A DNA stretch of 64,000 nucleotides from an uncultured Oscillospiraceae bacterium (GTDB taxonomy: Bacteria; Bacillota; Clostridia; Oscillospirales; Oscillospiraceae). The notes under the pieces are model-generated. The model saw nothing but the letters and a program-made list of their open reading frames with translations. It searched no databases and was not told the DNA's origin. This document shows, piece after piece, positions 32,636-42,945 of the stretch. The stretch spans positions 1,850 through 65,849 of the forward strand of contig CANQTW010000009.1 in the NCBI GenBank assembly GCA_947626845.1, given 5' to 3'. The position numbers and the translations under genes are program-made. Position 1 is the stretch's first letter; each line of letters opens with the position of its first letter.

Positions 32636-33163
32636 ATGTTTGACATGGGGGCATATATCATATACGGAGGCGAGGGGGTCTGCGTGGTGGAGGACATCGG
32701 TTGTCCCAACGTGTCCGGCGCCAACAAGGACAGGCTCTACTATACCCTGTCCCCTCTTTACCGTACAGGCAAGGTGTTCGCTCCGGTGGACACCCCGGTT
32801 TTCATGCGTCCGGTCATCTCCCGTGAGGAGGCCATCGACCTTATCCGCGCCATCCCCGGCGTCAACGGGGAGCTTTATGAGAGCATGAATCTGCGTTTCC
32901 TCACCGAGCACTACCAAAAGGCCCTTTCGCGGTATGAATGTATCGGCCTTGTGAAGCTCATCAAGGACGTGGTGGAAAAGCGCCGCTACGCCGCCGAGCA
33001 CGGGAAAAAGCTGGGCCAGATCGACGAGCGATTCATGAAGCGGGCCGAGGATATGCTTTACGGGGAGCTGGCCGTGGCGTTGGACATTGACCGCGGCGAG
33101 GTGGACGGCTATGTCAAAAACGCCCTGGCCACCATCGAAGCCGGCGGGGAATTCAACGGGTAA
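32636..33163 (+). CDS. CarD-family transcriptional regulator
   Basis: CarD_CdnL_TRCF-like N-terminus (YIIYGGEGVCVVEDI). Size is typical of clostridial CarD paralogues. Confidence 0.7.
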   Translation: MFDMGAYIIYGGEGVCVVEDIGCPNVSGANKDRLYYTLSPLYRTGKVFAPVDTPVFMRPVISREEAIDLIRAIPGVNGELYESMNLRFLTEHYQKALSRYECIGLVKLIKDVVEKRRYAAEHGKKLGQIDERFMKRAEDMLYGELAVALDIDRGEVDGYVKNALATIEAGGEFNG

Positions 33164-33559: not shown

Positions 33560-33631
33560 AGGCGACACCCAGACTTGAACTGGGGAATCAGGGTTTTGCA
33601 GACCCTTGCCTTACCACTTGGCTATGTCGCC
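33557..33631 (-). tRNA. tRNA-Cys (GCA), CCA encoded
   Basis: Reverse complement GGCGACATAGCCAAGTGGTAAGGCAAGGGTCTGCAAAACCCTGATTCCCCAGTTCAAGTCTGGGTGTCGCCTCCA folds as a cloverleaf with anticodon GCA. Confidence 0.9.
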
Positions 33632-33707
33632 ATACAGTACAGTATATGCGGCGATACGCATAAATGTTACTGATATGAGATTGGGGGCGTTGACGCCCCC
33701 AATCTTT

Positions 33708-33783
33708 TGGAGCGGCCTACGAGGCTCGAACTCGCTACCTCCACCTTGGCAAGGTGGCGCTCTACCAGATGAGCTAAGGCCGC
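33708..33783 (-). tRNA. tRNA-Gly (GCC), CCA encoded
   Basis: Reverse complement GCGGCCTTAGCTCATCTGGTAGAGCGCCACCTTGCCAAGGTGGAGGTAGCGAGTTCGAGCCTCGTAGGCCGCTCCA. Confidence 0.9.
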
Positions 33784-33786
33784 GGA

Positions 33787-33862
<76 letters not shown>

Positions 33863-33867
33863 ATAAA

Positions 33868-33944
<77 letters not shown>

Positions 33945-33952
33945 ACATAACG

Positions 33953-34029
33953 TGGTGGGAGTAACAGGGCTCGAACCTGTGACCTCCTGCTTGTAAGGCA
34001 GGCGCTCTAACCAGCTGAGCTATACTCCC
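33953..34029 (-). tRNA. tRNA-Val (TAC), CCA encoded
   Basis: Reverse complement GGGAGTATAGCTCAGCTGGTTAGAGCGCCTGCCTTACAAGCAGGAGGTCACAGGTTCGAGCCCTGTTACTCCCACCA. Confidence 0.9.
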
Positions 34030-37125: not shown

Positions 37126-37866
37126 TCAAAGCTCCAGCTTGCCCATGAAGTACGGCAGCTGCTTCTGCCACCAGCACCAGTCGTGGTTCACGTCAAAGCC
37201 CCAGTAGTCAAACCAGGCGGGGATGGCCTTTTCCCGGCAGACGGCGTCCAGCGCGCGGGTCCCGGCCAAAAGCTCGTCCTCCCAGGCACCCTGACCCACG
37301 CAGAAGATGAGCTGGCTCTGGCGATAAAGCTCCATATACGGGTGGTCGAAGGGCATGTTGGGCAGGAAATAGACCGGGGAGTTGTCATAGATGAGGTCAT
37401 CCATGTAGCCCGGAATGAAGTCGTTGGCGTTGTAGGTGCCGCTGAGGGCCACTACGGTGTCGAAAAGGTCCGGGCGGCGGAAGAAGAAAATACCGGAGTG
37501 GACGGCCCCCATGGAGCAGCCTGTCAGCATCCCCTTGCCGTGGACATCCCCCAGCTCCCGCGCCCTGGGATACAGCTCCAGGGTAATATAGCGGAACCAC
37601 TTCTCCTGCATCTCGATGCGGTGGCGGGGATCGTCGTTTTTGGCCGACCAGCTCTCGCCGTCGATACCGTCGGCGCAGACCAGCATGATCCTCCCCTCCT
37701 CGATCCAGGGCCTCATGCACTCCACCATGCCAAAATTCTCAAAGTCCCAGAAGCGCCCGTTCTGAGGCGGGAACGCGAAACAGACCTTGCCTCGGTTCCC
37801 ATAGACCTTGAACTCCATGTCTCGGTCCAGCTCTCGGCTCCACTCTTTAAAATAACGAACTTCCAT
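37126..37866 (-). CDS. esterase-family (alpha/beta hydrolase, putative esterase PF00756-like) protein
   Basis: 246-aa ORF with a GCSMGA nucleophile elbow. Confidence 0.65.
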   Translation of the reverse strand: MEVRYFKEWSRELDRDMEFKVYGNRGKVCFAFPPQNGRFWDFENFGMVECMRPWIEEGRIMLVCADGIDGESWSAKNDDPRHRIEMQEKWFRYITLELYPRARELGDVHGKGMLTGCSMGAVHSGIFFFRRPDLFDTVVALSGTYNANDFIPGYMDDLIYDNSPVYFLPNMPFDHPYMELYRQSQLIFCVGQGAWEDELLAGTRALDAVCREKAIPAWFDYWGFDVNHDWCWWQKQLPYFMGKLEL

Positions 37867-37883: not shown

Positions 37884-39083
37884 TTATTTGCTCTTTTTCT
37901 TCGCGGTCACGAATTTAATAAATTCATTGGCGGCCTTCCTGTCGGCGGCGTGGGCGATGAAGGTCTCGTTGCCCATCTGATCCTCCCAGATGGCGGGAAG
38001 CCGCTCGTACTTGACGATATTATCCCCGTACTTCTCAAAAATCTCCTCGTTCGTATGTACATAATCGTACATATCCCGCCTGTCGGCGGTGACGCAGAAG
38101 TGGTCCTCGCCGCTCTCCGGGAGCCGCCGCTCGTCGTAGGCCACCATCTCCGCCCAAATCTCGTAGACATCCGTGGAGTGGGCGAAATTCATCATATCCG
38201 GTGTATAGCTGCCGGCGGGGCGCATGTTGACCTCCAGGCCCACAAAGTCCCCCACCTTGCCAAGGCCCTCCTTGGCCACCTTCAGCTTAAAGAACTCCAG
38301 GTGGATAAAGCGGCTGCGGGCCCCGAAGGACTTGGCCGTGGCCCGGCCCAGCTTGCGCAGCTTCTCCGGCATACCGGCCTCCACATAGTAGGCCAGGTCC
38401 AGCTTGTCGTTGACGATATCCATAATAGAGGGCGGCCAGGCGGTCATGGACTCGAAAAGCGGCTCGCATTTGGAGTTTGTGATGGCGTCGTAGGAATAGA
38501 TGTCGCCGGTGATGAACTCCTCCATCACATACTGGACGGCGGGGAGATGATTGAAAAAGTCCTCAAAATCGGCGTCATTTTCAAGCTTATAGGTGGCCTC
38601 CGCCCCCACGCCGTTGTCGGGCTTGACGATGACGGGATACCCCACAAGCTTTATAAACTCCGCCGCGGCCTTCTTCGTGGTTATTTTATGGCACCTGGCC
38701 GTGGGGACGCCGGCCTTCTTGTAATACTCCTTCATCCCCCACTTGGACTTGAAGCACGCCACCTCCTGGGTGTTCACGCCGGTGGTCACGTTGAAGTCCG
38801 TGCGCAGGCGGGCGTCCTGCTCCAGCCAGTACTCGTTGTTGGACTCGATCCAGTCGATCTTGCCGTATTTAAAGGCGAAGAAAGCCACGGCCCGGTACAT
38901 CTGGCCGTAATCCTCCATGTTGTCCACCCGGTAGTACTCCGTCAACGCCCCCTTGAGGCCGTCGGACAGGCTCTCATAGGCGCTGTCGCCGATGCCCAGC
39001 ACATTGACGCCGTTCCGCTTCAGCCTGTCGCAGAAGCTCCAGTAGATGGGCGGGAATTGGGGGGAGATAAAAATGAAATTCAT
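37884..39083 (-). CDS. ATP-grasp domain protein
   Basis: Pre-ATP-grasp plus ATP-grasp organisation (VIVKPDNGVGA, EEFITGDIYSYD). ATG at 39083 with RBS AGGTGA. Confidence 0.7.
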   Translation of the reverse strand: MNFIFISPQFPPIYWSFCDRLKRNGVNVLGIGDSAYESLSDGLKGALTEYYRVDNMEDYGQMYRAVAFFAFKYGKIDWIESNNEYWLEQDARLRTDFNVTTGVNTQEVACFKSKWGMKEYYKKAGVPTARCHKITTKKAAAEFIKLVGYPVIVKPDNGVGAEATYKLENDADFEDFFNHLPAVQYVMEEFITGDIYSYDAITNSKCEPLFESMTAWPPSIMDIVNDKLDLAYYVEAGMPEKLRKLGRATAKSFGARSRFIHLEFFKLKVAKEGLGKVGDFVGLEVNMRPAGSYTPDMMNFAHSTDVYEIWAEMVAYDERRLPESGEDHFCVTADRRDMYDYVHTNEEIFEKYGDNIVKYERLPAIWEDQMGNETFIAHAADRKAANEFIKFVTAKKKSK

Positions 39084-39162
39084 ATGTAACATCACCTTAC
39101 GCAAAAGTAGTTGTATTTAATACCGCAATGTATTATATCCCCATTCTTCCCACCTGTCAATG

Positions 39163-40587
39163 TCAAACGCTCATTATTTTGGCTCTCCGTGTTCCGGCGT
39201 CCCCCTCCGAAAGCTCCCGGTAGGTGCGCCTGATAAGAAACGCCGCCACCAGGAACGTCAGGGCGTCGGCCAGGGGCATGGAGATCAGCACCCCGTCCAG
39301 GCCCCAGAAAAGCGGCAGGAGCAGGGCGAAGCCCACGCCAAAGACGATCTCACGGATCAGGGACAGGACGGTGGAGGCCAGCGCCTTGCCCAACGCCTGT
39401 AAAAAGATAAAGCAGGCCTTGTTGACGCAGGCAAAGACGATCATGCACAGATACACCCTGAAGGCCCGAAGGGCAAAGGATGTGTAATATACGCTCTCGT
39501 TGGCCGCGCCGAAAAGGGCGATCAGCCGTCCGGGAAACACCTCCACGATGATCAGCGCCGCCAGGCCCACCGCCGCTTCCGCCGTGAGCAGGCGGGTAAA
39601 CAGCTCCCGCACTCTCCCTTTCTCTCCGGCGCCCATGTTGTACCCCGCCACGGGGATGCACCCGGCGGAAAGGCCCACCACGACGGAGATGACGATCTGG
39701 AAGAACTTCATGACGATCCCCACCACCGCCATGGGGATCTGCGCGTACTGCTCCTGCCCGAAGATGGGGTCGAGCGCGCCGTATTTGCGGATCATGTTGT
39801 TGATGGCCGCCATAGCCGCCACCAGGGAGATCTGGGAGAGGAAGCTGGTGACGCCCAGCGTCAGGGTCTTAAGGCAAATCTGCCCGTCCAGGCGGTAATC
39901 CCCTCTTTGGGGCTTCACCAGCTTCATGTGGAAAAGATACCATACGGACAGCGCCGCCGTGACAGCCTGTCCGGCCACCGTCGCCACAGCCGCGCCCATC
40001 ATCCCCCAGCGGAGGACGAAGATAAACACCGGGTCCAGGACGATATTCAGCGCCGCTCCCGCCAGGGTGGACACCATGGCGAAGCGCGGCGACCCGTCGG
40101 CACGGATGATGGGGTTCATGGCCTGGCCGAACATGTAAAAGGGCACCCCCAGCGCGATCCAGAAAAAGTATTCTCTGGCGCAGTCAAAGGTCTCTCGGTT
40201 GACGGTGCCGCCGAACATGGTGATGATAGGCGTCTGAAAGCCCAGATAAACGGCCCCCAGCGCCACGCCGGCCATCAGCACCATCACCACGGCGTTTCCC
40301 ACGCTCCGGCGGGCGGGACCGGCCTCCTCCCGTCCCAAGCTCAGGCTCACAAAGGCGCAGCACCCGTCCCCGATCATCACCGCCACGGCCAGGGCGATGA
40401 CCGTCAGCGGGAACACCACCGTGTTGGCGGCGTTGCCGTAGGAGCCGAGATAGGCGGCGTTGGCAATGAAGATTTGATCCACAATGTTGTACAGCGCGCC
40501 CATCAGGAGCGATATGACGCAGGGCACCGCGTATTTTCCCATCAGCTTCCCCACGCTCTCCGTGCGCAGAAATTCGTTGTTTTCCAT
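39163..40587 (-). CDS. MATE-family efflux transporter
   Basis: 12-TM protein with a MatE N-terminus (AVPCVISLLMGALYNIVDQIFI). ATG at 40587. Confidence 0.9.
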   Translation of the reverse strand: MENNEFLRTESVGKLMGKYAVPCVISLLMGALYNIVDQIFIANAAYLGSYGNAANTVVFPLTVIALAVAVMIGDGCCAFVSLSLGREEAGPARRSVGNAVVMVLMAGVALGAVYLGFQTPIITMFGGTVNRETFDCAREYFFWIALGVPFYMFGQAMNPIIRADGSPRFAMVSTLAGAALNIVLDPVFIFVLRWGMMGAAVATVAGQAVTAALSVWYLFHMKLVKPQRGDYRLDGQICLKTLTLGVTSFLSQISLVAAMAAINNMIRKYGALDPIFGQEQYAQIPMAVVGIVMKFFQIVISVVVGLSAGCIPVAGYNMGAGEKGRVRELFTRLLTAEAAVGLAALIIVEVFPGRLIALFGAANESVYYTSFALRAFRVYLCMIVFACVNKACFIFLQALGKALASTVLSLIREIVFGVGFALLLPLFWGLDGVLISMPLADALTFLVAAFLIRRTYRELSEGDAGTRRAKIMSV

Positions 40588-40627
40588 CAAAACCATTCTT
40601 TCCTCATTACGTCGATCCCCGACGCGC

Positions 40628-40732
40628 AAAAAGCGTGTGGCACGACGCTGGATTTACGCCGTCGGGCCACACGCTTTCATATAAAAACGCGCGGCACCCA
40701 ACCGGATTTACGCATTGAGTGCCACACGTTGT
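40628..40732 (-). ncRNA. structured 5' leader: two tandem terminator-like hairpins sharing the loop GCGUAAAUCC
   Basis: H1 (40688-40728) and H2 (40632-40675) each have about 15 bp of stem, an 11-12 nt loop and a U5 tract. They lie between the promoter and the MATE start codon. Confidence 0.55.
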
Positions 40733-40738
40733 ATTTTT

Positions 40739-40767
40739 ATTATAGCCTCATTTGAAAAAGCCGTCAA
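40739..40767 (-). promoter_or_regulatory. promoter of the MATE gene leader
   Basis: Minus strand: TTGACG - 17 nt - TATAAT. Confidence 0.55.
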
Positions 40768-40800
40768 AGGTGATTTTGAACAAAAATCACGGGGAAGCGC

Positions 40801-42945
<2,145 letters not shown>

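Follow-up and report, generated by a model that had tools for sequence, protein, structure and literature searches.

The leader of a MatE-family efflux transporter gene carries two tandem terminator hairpins, designated H1 and H2. Both are copies of one leader-RNA motif, which is widespread in Clostridia of gut and rumen and has no counterpart in Rfam 15. Structure, conservation, strand, position and gene association of the motif, like its absence from Rfam, are matters of observation; conditional antitermination is the reading that best fits this anatomy, an inference for which there is no direct regulatory evidence. The term "window" refers to the whole 64-kb stretch of DNA that was analyzed.

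Promoter, tandem hairpins and flanking genes of the MATE leader

According to the promoter scan, the minus strand downstream of hppA contains a promoter of the form TTGACG-17-TATAAT (40767-40739), as a preceding sequence-only reading of the window had stated; it matches the consensus in 11 of 12 positions and has a 17-nt spacer (see Table 1). Transcription is predicted to start near A40732, a position that is inferred and not mapped, and the H1 terminator hairpin would begin at approximately +3 of the transcript (about 3 nt past the predicted start), the -10 box ending 10 nt before the CGUGU of the hairpin. The element adjoining the -35 box possibly serves as UP-like element or binds a transcription factor, functions that are merely inferred from its letters.

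The same reading had described two tandem terminator-like hairpins with a common loop and U tracts, and both were recovered by RNA folding and exact core matches: the stems of H1 and H2 comprise approximately 15-17 bp (core stem of H2, 40674-40633) and are followed by UUUUU, which meets the criterion for intrinsic (Rho-independent) terminators. The 161-nt leader folds with -67.1 kcal/mol (z = -4.49), and none of 200 shuffled sequences folded equally well. The 10-mer GCGTAAATCC occurs exactly twice in the window (40713-40704 and 40659-40650), each time in one of the two hairpin loops. H1 and H2 form a direct repeat with 54-nt spacing and 74% identity over 31 nt; their inner stems (UCAAU/GUUGG in H1 versus CGAC(G)/CGUCG in H2) differ in sequence yet pair in both hairpins, in agreement with the initial description. 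For the small third hairpin no counterpart was seen in the other leaders examined. The free position of the Shine-Dalgarno sequence argues for transcriptional and not translational control. Two in-frame ATG codons are present at the start of the MatE gene, 40596 and 40587, the latter of which, the start originally assigned, is favored by the N-termini of the orthologues (MENNEFL...; the MATE orthologues are 76-90% identical to the window gene). NCBIfam MATE models matched the gene as well, every one of them below its curated cut-off.

Table 1. Features of the MATE leader and its flanking genes, listed in the direction of transcription.
Feature	Position	Strand	Sequence, basis or remark
hppA, H+-pyrophosphatase, upstream gene	40801..42945	(-)	PF03030, E = 1.2e-187
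T5-GTT-CA4 element with imperfect palindrome GTGATTTTTGTTCAAAATCAC	40770..40790	(-)	adjoins -35 box; read from sequence
-35 hexamer TTGACG	40762..40767	(-)	promoter scan
-10 hexamer TATAAT	40739..40744	(-)	promoter scan
H1, type A motif copy	40686..40730	(-)	AACGUGUGGCACUCAAU-[GCGUAAAUCCG]-GUUGGGUGCCGCGCGUU; RNA fold
H1 loop core GCGUAAAUCC	40704..40713	(-)	exact match
H1 U tract UUUUU	40683..40687	(-)	read from sequence
H2, type B motif copy	40629..40678	(-)	(GAAA)GCGUGUGGCCCGACG-[GCGUAAAUCCAG]-CGUCGUGCCACACGC(UUUU); RNA fold
H2 loop core GCGUAAAUCC	40650..40659	(-)	exact match
H2 U tract UUUUU	40628..40632	(-)	read from sequence
Small third hairpin GCGUCG-GGGAU-CGACGU	40609..40625	(-)	between H2 and ribosome-binding site; RNA fold
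Shine-Dalgarno GAGGA	40601..40605	(-)	sequestered by neither hairpin
MatE-family efflux transporter gene	39163..40587	(-)	PF01554, E = 4.7e-26

Distribution of the motif and its downstream genes

In all nine protein-anchored orthologous MATE loci the motif is located directly upstream of the transporter gene, with two copies in five of them; hairpin, loop and U tract are kept in each of the nine, and across the family the stems covary, so that both the conservation of hairpins and loop in orthologous leaders and the selected RNA structure postulated from the window were borne out. The argument against a chance origin relies chiefly on this conservation between species. A pattern scan with one genome per species revealed the motif in at least 110 Clostridia species genomes. 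Approximately 112 of the 120 matches listed are true hairpins, and the groups represented among the matches listed are the Lachnospiraceae, Oscillospiraceae, Ruminococcaceae, Christensenellales, Erysipelotrichaceae and Peptococcaceae. Cultured carriers of the motif include Anaerofilum hominis BX8, Hominiventricola filiformis, Pilosibacter fragilis and Hominicoprocola fusiformis. As the scan fixed CGTGTRGC and the core, the conservation of those columns of alignment A1 is partly built in; only two sets of copies are unbiased, those of the protein-anchored loci and the second copies that the covariance model detected.

The loci of other genomes contain one to three copies (two at about half of the loci, a single hairpin at many), always in sense orientation to a narrow set of downstream genes; the motif is also found before some few genes other than MATE, namely those for p79 (a 79-aa orphan), CarD-like, DUF2798-like and Cytidylate_kin2 proteins and rubrerythrin. 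Among the matches listed, 109 of 119 copies have a same-strand ORF start within 450 nt, and no core was present on the antisense strand in 106 of 116 loci. Type A copies open the transcript at its 5' end, and type B copies are found just before the gene; copies of types B and C lack a promoter of their own and are located between cistrons or behind a type A copy. The tandem of the window is no local duplication; it represents the type A plus type B arrangement that is conserved in a large family.

These data bear on the explanation that the hairpins have no regulatory role and are ordinary constitutive terminators, H1 ending the hppA transcript, or a REP-like repeat whose loops resemble each other by recent duplication. 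Downstream of hppA, H1 is the first structure that resembles a terminator (the terminator scan detected none between the hppA stop and H1, and missed H1 and H2 themselves because their loops are longer than its 3-8 nt limit), and H1 and H2 are direct repeats. However, the promoter sits between hppA and H1, the upstream gene varies between loci while the downstream gene remains constant, the core is strand-specific, and it is kept in the at least 110 species genomes despite diverged stems. A dispersed repeat, which the sequence-only reading had itself raised as a possible refutation, is countered by the confinement of the motif to leaders and intercistronic gaps of the narrow gene set; a REP/BOX-like element was likewise rejected, with only two copies in the 64 kb, both in this leader (the copy number in the whole genome was not counted). 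Constitutive terminators or a dispersed repeat are in consequence already contradicted by the comparative data and must be regarded as extremely unlikely.

Motif and MATE operons are partly located on mobile cassettes beside recombinases and a rifampin ADP-ribosyltransferase gene, where the motif keeps its place despite different flanking genes, and a few MAGs labelled outside the Firmicutes also carry it. Viral contigs yielded 12 pattern matches. Five of them are true copies, which precede MATE, p79 and an unknown gene, and the other seven are one repeated chance match within coding sequence.

Structure, covariation and terminator form of the motif

The stem of the motif has the base RCGUGURGC/GCYRCACGY and an inner part that varies in sequence but is always paired; it is closed by a loop of 8-12 nt with the conserved core GCGUAAAUCC(R)G and followed by a U tract. 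The loop core is the most conserved part (GCGTAAATCC in 127 of 179 cores among the matches listed). In the alignment of 117 copies among the matches listed, the outer helix is 96.6% paired, with compensatory exchanges at pair 3-52 (AU 59, GC 35, GU 17) and pair 9-46 (GC 60, AU 44), and the observed covariation score was reached by none of 500 shuffles. The native inner stems have a mean stability of -12.7 kcal/mol versus -8.0 kcal/mol for permuted arms; their arms are co-adapted, with none of 300 permutations as stable. Covariance model R1 assigned 59.3 bits to H1 (E = 3.8e-14) and 58.0 bits to H2 (E = 9.6e-14) on the sense strand, H2 scoring 27.3 bits in antisense; across the family, sense copies reached 40-72 bits and the same hairpins read in antisense 15-34 bits. 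At least six U within the 10 nt after the stem were found in 111 of 117 copies among the matches listed. The last copy ends approximately 20-60 nt before the start codon, which leaves no room for a further promoter, and the Shine-Dalgarno sequence is free.

The -10 box is 8-10 nt apart from the type A hairpin in 68 of 94 cases among the matches listed, with 10 nt as the modal distance (42 of 94), and the element that adjoins the -35 box in the window recurs, as TTTTTGTGCAAAA-N3-4-CCTTTGACA, upstream of approximately 45% of the type A copies in other species. This arrangement, a near-consensus promoter with an UP-like T/A element directly before a complete terminator hairpin whose loop offers a conserved single strand of 10 nt, would also be expected if the type A unit (strong promoter, hairpin of about 50 nt and terminator) were mainly the gene of an abundant small RNA acting in trans through its loop, as antisense seed or protein decoy, with downstream expression by leak-through. 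Such a function appears improbable: the type B and C copies are promoterless, the great majority of the copies precede a same-strand ORF of the narrow gene set (see above), and no complementary target was seen in the window.

Similarly improbable is the interpretation of the copies as DNA operators for a roadblock repressor of an efflux regulon, acting at and after the transcription start with the RNA hairpin being incidental. In its favor, the outer arms are palindromic as DNA (CGTGTGGC...GCCACACG), another conserved element is present just upstream of the -35 box, and the core is conserved whatever its RNA pairing context. Yet G-U pairs occur on the sense strand only, and the opposite strand would have A-C mismatches in place of the U-G wobbles at pair 8-47 (79 of 117 copies among the matches listed) and pair 6-49 (26 of 117); the two conserved blocks are separated by a spacer of 4 to 10 nt, and the distance between the arms is more variable still; a U tract always follows the stem; many copies are situated between genes, 100-350 nt from any promoter; and the clustering of 848 ORFs from motif loci revealed no transcription-factor gene as conserved neighbor.

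The core itself is not confined to one structural context: among the matches listed, 141 of 179 cores lie in the loop, 30 in the 5' strand of the terminator stem and eight are partly paired, and the upstream YGNGYNGC is kept in 175 of 179 even where it has no pairing partner, as is the case for the CGUGURGC of the type C copies. The 30 copies with the core in the 5' stem strand suggest that a trans-acting factor reads the sequence itself; recognition probably involves the 5' arm and the core as sequence and not only the shared loop of the initial proposal.

No alternative antiterminator structure was found, and type A copies have nothing upstream to pair with; neither a junction nor an internal loop nor a covarying pseudoknot was detected in the motif RNA. 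The search for alternative conserved helices yielded only candidates of 3-4 bp, all of them in invariant columns. GCGU of the loop is able to pair with the 3' ACGY beside the U tract as a possible competing helix, which is without covariation support because these columns are invariant. Two further candidates were rejected, namely a switch between copy A and type C in long Oscillospiraceae leaders, for which complementarity exists but is not kept in locus L104, and a leader peptide, for which the loop could be read as NUG-CGU-AAA in three of four examples; H2 has CGG instead, a Shine-Dalgarno sequence is lacking, and the site lies inside a stem.

Comparison with known regulatory RNAs

The initial reading had recognized no named riboswitch class, and in agreement with this neither the window nor 24 related loci gave a credible match in Rfam 15. 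The whole window returned only tRNAs at the gathering score, and the leader at E <= 10 only spurious matches (miRNA and snoRNA models and the Brucella sRNA CI27, the latter with 23.7 bits versus 59.8 needed); there was no match at the motif sites of 18 related loci and none at E <= 1 in six loci with 11 copies. No description of the motif was found in the literature searched, and it is not mentioned in the ncRNA surveys of 26 and 50 genomes. The Transposase-resistance motif of the 2010 set, which is not in Rfam, was discarded as its alignment rows are long, unrelated palindromes.

The closest published analogue is the guanidine-IV riboswitch (mepA motif), a class that the sequence-only reading had left out of consideration; judged by sequence and loop pairing, the motif is not a member of it. 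Guanidine-IV RNAs occupy the leader of MATE (mepA-like) efflux genes in Firmicutes and consist of two hairpins joined by a linker that varies, the second, 3' one being an intrinsic terminator with an unusually conserved loop; they are proposed to act as ON switch via antitermination, and their variant Gd4v, whose ligand is unknown, is enriched in gut metagenomes (PMC7736828, PMC9788692, bioRxiv 10.1101/2020.10.21.349134). The motif resembles them in its MATE leader position, in hairpins with a conserved terminator loop and in the proposed ON logic by antitermination. In contrast, the two guanidine-IV loops differ and are complementary to each other (P2/kissing loop), whereas the motif loops are identical (GCGUAAAUCC) and neither complementary nor self-complementary; moreover, the motif is often single-copy and already the first of its hairpins is a terminator. 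The validated guanidine-IV sequence of C. botulinum (...GUUGCCACCGGGUAGC... / ...UUUAGGUCUUAGUAGG...), one member compared by eye, contains neither GCGUAAAUCC nor the CGUGURGC block, and the test for the guanidine-IV gene associations (sugE/Gdx, MATE and PnuC) found MATE downstream and no sugE, PnuC or transaminase among the approximately 110 downstream genes listed. Identity with guanidine-IV or Gd4v was rejected on the basis of the papers and the comparison with validated sequence.

The HMP-PP riboswitch (thiS motif) is a single terminator hairpin with a loop conserved far beyond the needs of termination; it occurs solely before genes of a particular set, turns these ON and has a second, comparatively supported consensus fold that breaks the terminator base (PMC6478431). 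The motif likewise is a terminator that has a conserved loop and precedes a defined group of genes; it differs in sequence, in its association with efflux instead of thiamin genes (none of the latter were found near the motif loci) and in the lack of a supported competing fold. Further terminator-embedded classes have been predicted, also as ON switches, and terminator stems are usually ignored when candidates of motif searches are ranked (bioRxiv 10.1101/2020.10.21.349134).

With these precedents the motif may be an orphan riboswitch with a terminator-embedded aptamer that is turned ON by a small molecule, a possibility that is regarded as unlikely though far from negligible. The ligand, e.g. 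a cationic xenobiotic exported by MATE, would bind the nascent loop and upper stem, and the stabilized fold could not complete the terminator base, with the result that the gene is ON and tandem copies sharpen the response. An abnormally conserved terminator loop was the diagnostic clue for both HMP-PP and guanidine-IV (PMC6478431; bioRxiv 10.1101/2020.10.21.349134). The association with transporters and several non-homologous genes points in the same direction, as does the occurrence on mobile cassettes and in the few MAGs labelled outside the Firmicutes, where no host factor may be needed; the GCGU/ACGY pairing would offer a competing helix. However, the RNA is merely a hairpin with a loop of 8-12 nt in which neither a junction nor an internal loop nor a covarying pseudoknot was detected, the varying context of the core (loop, partly paired, fully in the stem) is hard to fit to one aptamer fold, no hairpin aptamer is possible in type C copies that lack the partner of CGUGURGC, and the competing helix cannot be supported by covariation. 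It is similarly doubtful, although conceivable, that the motif constitutes a new riboswitch class whose sensor is wholly the promoter-proximal terminator hairpin, with the aptamer in the loop and no separate expression platform. If true, it would sense a gut xenobiotic or drug and activate a partly mobile MATE cassette across hundreds of species of gut Clostridia.

Protein-dependent attenuation offers a further comparison. In PyrR attenuation of the Bacillus pyr operon, a repeated protein-binding hairpin, each coupled to a terminator, is present in the leader and between cistrons, and the regulator is encoded by the first gene of the operon; the order copy A - p79 - copy B - MATE represents an analogous layout. 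PyrR binds an anti-antiterminator and promotes termination, whereas in the motif neither antiterminator nor anti-antiterminator was found and binding would have to block the terminator directly. No PyrR homologue was found, and no Rfam model, including the PyrR binding site, matched at the motif sites. Guanidine-II (mini-ykkC) RNAs likewise lie ahead of efflux genes, as a pair of small, similar hairpins that share a conserved loop and are connected by a variable linker; their ACGR tetraloops dimerize and control is translational, while the motif has loops of 8-12 nt without ACGR tetraloop, long terminator stems and single copies. In ANTAR dual-hairpin leaders, both hairpins carry hexaloops whose first nucleotide is A and whose fourth is G, and the second hairpin overlaps a terminator; the motif differs from them by its loops of 8-12 nt and by each of its hairpins being itself a terminator.

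Proposed antitermination mechanism and candidate factors

The reading that is preferred here, with about an even chance of being correct, regards the tandem attenuators as conditional terminators that are relieved by a trans-acting factor, most likely an RNA-binding protein. By default, transcription from the strong promoter would halt at H1, giving an RNA of approximately 50 nt, or at H2, and MATE would be expressed only upon read-through of both terminators. The factor is envisaged to grip the nascent 5' arm and core before the 3' arm is made, so that the terminator could not close; it would most likely be an RNA-binding protein reporting a toxic compound and less likely a small ligand, and two serial copies would ensure a very low basal expression and a steep response. 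Conditional termination, the antitermination effect and the protein nature of the factor are all inferred, and the trigger is unproven. A protein is plausible because the RNA is a simple hairpin without junction or pseudoknot, because copies occur both in leaders and between cistrons, and because the operons carry conserved orphan genes (p79 and Cytidylate_kin2). The spread on mobile cassettes and the presence in MAGs labelled outside the Firmicutes count against a protein, being easier to explain for a protein-free riboswitch.

If factor-dependent antitermination holds true, a single switch at the RNA level would govern a MATE efflux operon in many of the dominant Clostridia of gut and rumen, and finding its trigger would reveal the compound that is defended against and how gut efflux is induced. 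It would be the third sensor hidden inside a terminator, after HMP-PP and guanidine-IV, and an unusually minimal case with the hairpin starting at approximately +3 of the transcript and no antiterminator; it would also open three orphan families to functional study, namely p79, the Cytidylate_kin2 proteins linked to the motif and the CarD-like paralogues.

The conserved orphan genes p79 and Cytidylate_kin2 could encode the factor, an activity that is only inferred, and a new antitermination system with p79 as an RNA-binding regulator of a hitherto unknown type is conceivable. No RNA-binding domain was identified in any operon partner. The p79 protein matched nothing in Pfam, NCBIfam or the PDB sequences; its AlphaFold model has a beta-alpha-beta-beta fold (pLDDT 77), for which Foldseek retrieved nothing below E = 0.04 from the PDB and only a weak dodecin-like topology, and its net charge, counted from the sequence, is near zero. 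Neither p79 nor a Cytidylate_kin2 protein is encoded beside the MATE gene of the window, so that the gene of the factor would have to lie elsewhere in this genome. In loci that carry p79, it is always the first gene after copy A: the eight loci fetched by protein and scanned with the model all contained one copy approximately 25 nt upstream of p79, and in seven of them another copy separates p79 from MATE; in the eighth, L129, p79 is not followed by MATE. The Cytidylate_kin2 protein follows MATE in 19 loci among the matches listed.

Organization of the MATE gene leader

The tandem hairpins in the leader of the MATE (MatE) gene are a real element, belonging to an RNA family that is large, conserved, formed on the sense strand and associated with a narrow set of genes; in form they are two intrinsic terminators in series, set between the strong promoter and the efflux gene. 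The sequence-only reading had described the leader accurately: promoter, both hairpins (H1 and H2), common loop, U tracts and the MatE gene were all present, all on the minus strand (see table). H1 starts with CGUGUGGC, 10 nt past the −10 box, and is followed by H2 after a gap of 7 nt; the units repeat directly with a spacing of 54 nt, both loops contain the 10-mer GCGUAAAUCC, and no third exact copy of it occurs in the 64-kb window. The folding energy of the leader (−67.1 kcal/mol, z = −4.49) was equalled by none of 200 shuffles. An alternative in-frame MatE start is located at 40596.

Features of the MATE gene leader and its flanking genes (window positions)
Feature	Position	Strand	Details
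H+-pyrophosphatase gene (hppA)	40801-42945	minus	PF03030, E = 1.2e-187
Near-consensus promoter TTGACG-17-TATAAT	40767-40739	minus	3' of H+-pyrophosphatase gene
H1 hairpin	40730-40686	minus	terminal UUUUU at 40687-40683
H2 hairpin	40678-40629 (core stem 40674-40633)	minus	terminal UUUUU at 40632-40628
Small hairpin	40625-40609	minus	downstream of H2
Shine-Dalgarno GAGGA	40605-40601	minus	between small hairpin and MatE gene
MatE gene	start ATG 40587, stop at 39163	minus	PF01554, E = 4.7e-26

Conservation and distribution of the motif

Close homologues of the window MATE protein number in the thousands. In all nine MATE loci fetched via the protein, without any DNA pattern (L001, L002, L003, L149, L150, L151 to L154), a hairpin with the same loop core (the conserved loop sequence) and a U tract was positioned directly 5' of the MATE start, with two motif copies in five of them; the gene upstream of the motif varied (hppA, VWA, DctP, PIN, a CarD-like gene and others). 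The conservation of hairpin and loop that the sequence-only reading had proposed to look for in orthologous leaders is thereby established. The element is not a dispersed repeat, the alternative considered there.

A pattern scan of one genome per species (CGTGTRGC-N4-10-GCGTAAANCC-N5-12-GCYRC) yielded at least 120 matches. Among the matches listed, six from Proteobacteria, Acidobacteria or Sphingobacterium, without hairpin and U tract, were evident chance matches; all others were complete hairpins with U tracts. The carriers among them comprised Lachnospiraceae, Oscillospiraceae, Ruminococcaceae, Christensenellales, Erysipelotrichaceae, Peptococcaceae and unclassified Clostridia, nearly all from gut or rumen samples, and included cultured species, e.g. 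Anaerofilum hominis, Hominiventricola filiformis, Pilosibacter fragilis and Hominicoprocola fusiformis. The motif was also present in three MAGs labelled Bacteroides, Bacteroidaceae or Ornithospirochaeta, for which binning error and horizontal transfer could not be distinguished.

Two main flavours were recognized: type A, the copy at the transcript 5' end (...ACUGCGUAAAUCCRGUUG...), and type B, without fixed promoter distance and usually placed just before the MATE start (AAGCGUGURGCC...GGCGUAAAUCCAGC...). Since the −10 box ended 8-10 nt before type A in 68 of 94 cases (mode 10 nt, the distance also present in the window), the type A hairpin begins at about +3 of the predicted transcript. H1 is of type A and H2 of type B; with this tandem the window follows the usual layout of the family, and no recent duplication at this locus is implied. 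Within 400 nt on either side of the pattern-matched copies (116 loci), one core was counted in 54 loci, two in 61 and three in one; the antisense control gave no core in 106 loci. Copy spacings fell into two clusters, one of 54-110 nt for direct tandems and one of about 320-340 nt for copies separated by a small gene, and at least six U within 10 nt past the stem were found in 111/117 copies. The last copy typically ended about 20-60 nt ahead of the start codon, leaving the Shine-Dalgarno sequence free; transcription of the downstream gene must therefore pass the terminator(s).

H1 was retained in the closest relative of the window (L001/L088), which has 90% protein identity and shares the hppA synteny. 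Its second hairpin (L001 1802-1849, equal to L088) kept the outer stem AGCGCGCGGCC/GGCCGCGCGCU but has an unrelated loop and lacks the core and U tract; judged by this loss, copy B seems dispensable or in decay there. Immediately upstream of and overlapping the −35 box, a conserved element TTTTTGTGCAAAA-N3-4-CCTTTGACA was present in about 45% of the type-A loci, across various species and whichever gene followed (e.g. L002, L063, L064, L072, L102; window 40770-40790, minus strand, where an imperfect palindrome, GTGATTTTTGTTCAAAATCAC, includes it). A role as UP element is conceivable, as is one as a transcription-factor site common to the regulon.

Covariation of the stems

For 117 distinct copies from the matches listed, aligned by MAFFT without structure fitting, the outer helix was 96.6% paired. 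Its pairs changed in concert (3-52: A-U 59, G-C 35, G-U 17; 9-46: G-C 60, A-U 44; 8-47: U-G wobble 79, U-A 38), its covariation score was reached by none of 500 shuffles, and pairing dropped to 23-47% in every slid register. The inner stems were too variable for alignment (71 distinct 5' and 92 distinct 3' spacers); their arms are nonetheless co-adapted, the mean energy being −12.7 kcal/mol for native stems versus −8.0 kcal/mol with 3' spacers permuted among sequences, and none of 300 permutations being as stable. The selected, covarying stems inferred from H1 and H2 alone are hence borne out across the family. Under a covariance model of the motif, sense copies reached 40-72 bits, against 15-34 bits when these hairpins were read in antisense. 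The invariance of the CGTGTRGC, core and GCYRC columns is partly imposed, because the search pattern fixed these blocks; real variation was seen in model-found second copies and protein-anchored loci (CGAGU, CGCGU, UGUGU, with pairing mostly retained; variant cores GCAUAAAUCC, GCGUAAGUCC, GCGUAAUUCC).

Downstream genes and the p79 cassette

About 80% of the copies among the matches listed lie ahead of one MATE orthogroup. Other downstream genes encoded a second MatE subfamily, a CarD_TRCF_RID protein of about 170 aa, Cytidylate_kin2 proteins, rubrerythrin, a 167-aa membrane protein (one relative matching DUF2798) and p79, a 79-aa orphan protein. Clustering of all ORFs of the loci revealed no conserved neighbouring transcription factor; it identified Cytidylate_kin2, directly 3' of MATE in 19 loci, as conserved operon partner. 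The window also contains a CarD-like ORF and an adjoining cluster of five tRNA genes (32639-33127, plus strand, and 33560-34029, minus strand); this ORF shares 27% identity (tblastn) with the CarD-like protein linked to the motif and has no motif copy upstream.

p79 (MKRIKAACICQTLHF...; loci L124-L129, L133-L134, also L012, L021, L042, L052, L063, L089, L105, L144) has 3,677 homologue clusters, those listed being 72-99% identical and all unnamed, and no match in Pfam, NCBIfam or PDB. Its invariant residues include C8, C10 and H14; the predicted fold is beta-alpha-beta-beta (pLDDT 77), without significant structural neighbours and with only weak, non-significant dodecin-like matches. p79 is always the first gene following a type-A copy. 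In the eight p79 loci that were obtained through the protein and searched with the covariance model, a copy ended about 25 nt 5' of p79 in all, and a second copy lay between p79 and MATE in seven, the exception (L129) having no MATE gene following p79. In PyrR attenuation, copies are present in the leader and between cistrons, and the operon layout of the motif resembles it. One identical p79 sequence (P0236; L124-L128) was found on hundreds of contigs with differing flanks, so [A]-p79-[B]-MATE-Cytidylate_kin2 is also mobile as a cassette. These flanks contained serine recombinases and NLPC_P60/CD1107-like conjugative-element genes, in L127 also an Arr-ms rifampin ADP-ribosyltransferase; as far as sequence context can tell, this indicates a mobile resistance-type cassette carrying both RNA copies.

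Proposed recognition of the motif and comparison with known leaders

In many Oscillospiraceae and Ruminococcaceae, copy A of long leaders is followed by a second element, type C (AAUCGUGURGC-AGAAAU-GCGUAAGUCC-loop-GGACUURCGC-AUUUCU-U tract), in which the core is located not in a loop but in the terminator stem, as its 5' strand. The upstream CGUGURGC has nothing to pair with in this type, although the two blocks are retained together with their spacing. The order copy A, GCGGAAAUGGG, variable insert, AAAAGUUCAUAA, type C terminator is highly conserved in these families (about 25 loci, e.g. L009, L011, L023, L024, L026, L037, L048, L082, L096). The copy A spacer GUUUCU is complementary to the type C spacer AGAAAU, which hints at a possible long-range alternative pairing; L104, where complementarity is not retained, speaks against it. 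Among 179 cores, 141 were in a loop, 30 in a 5' stem strand and 8 partly paired, and the upstream YGNGYNGC block was retained with 175. This conservation whatever the pairing state points to putative recognition of core and upstream block as sequence, not as fold. The recogniser would be a trans-acting factor on the nascent strand, its binding mutually exclusive with terminator closure in all three types.

Rfam 15 contains no family for this element, in agreement with the earlier failure to assign it to a named riboswitch class. The closest published analogues are the guanidine-IV (mepA) riboswitch and its Gd4v variant, MATE-associated ON switches with two hairpins and a conserved-loop terminator (PMC7736828, PMC9788692, bioRxiv 10.1101/2020.10.21.349134). 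However, the loop-loop complementarity defining these is absent and the one validated guanidine-IV sequence compared is unrelated, so membership was rejected. The terminator-with-conserved-loop logic is likewise common to the HMP-PP riboswitch (PMC6478431), which has a supported competing fold; none was found for this motif. Guanidine-II, the ANTAR leader and the Transposase-resistance motif were each excluded as identity of the element.

The element is very probably a cis-acting attenuator. Because the sequence is conserved irrespective of pairing, protein-mediated antitermination was ranked, by inference from the anatomy, above a folded-aptamer riboswitch, and no RNA-binding domain that would support it was found; with the trigger itself left open, an attenuator that depends on a protein or on an unspecified trans factor has about an even chance of being correct. 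A small-ligand riboswitch, the precedent of which lies in the analogues named, is possible but unlikely, and all other readings together are slightly less probable still. A literature text search found no description of the element sequence or its gene association, an unnamed entry in large computational catalogues remaining possible; the family appears new, its kind being a variant of terminator-embedded regulatory leaders.

Further loci

Past the MATE gene of the window, no site resembling a terminator was detected. From 3 nt past its stop codon, a 12/12 sigma-70-type promoter TTGACA-17-TATAAT is present (39132-39160, minus strand), downstream of which follow an ATP-grasp ORF (37884-39104) and then an esterase ORF (37126-37866). 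On three IMG/VR contigs classed as viral (L137, L140, L141), a type-A copy lies ahead of an unidentified gene (MADKYGIRIIHDSGPVGW...), which may be a further regulon member.
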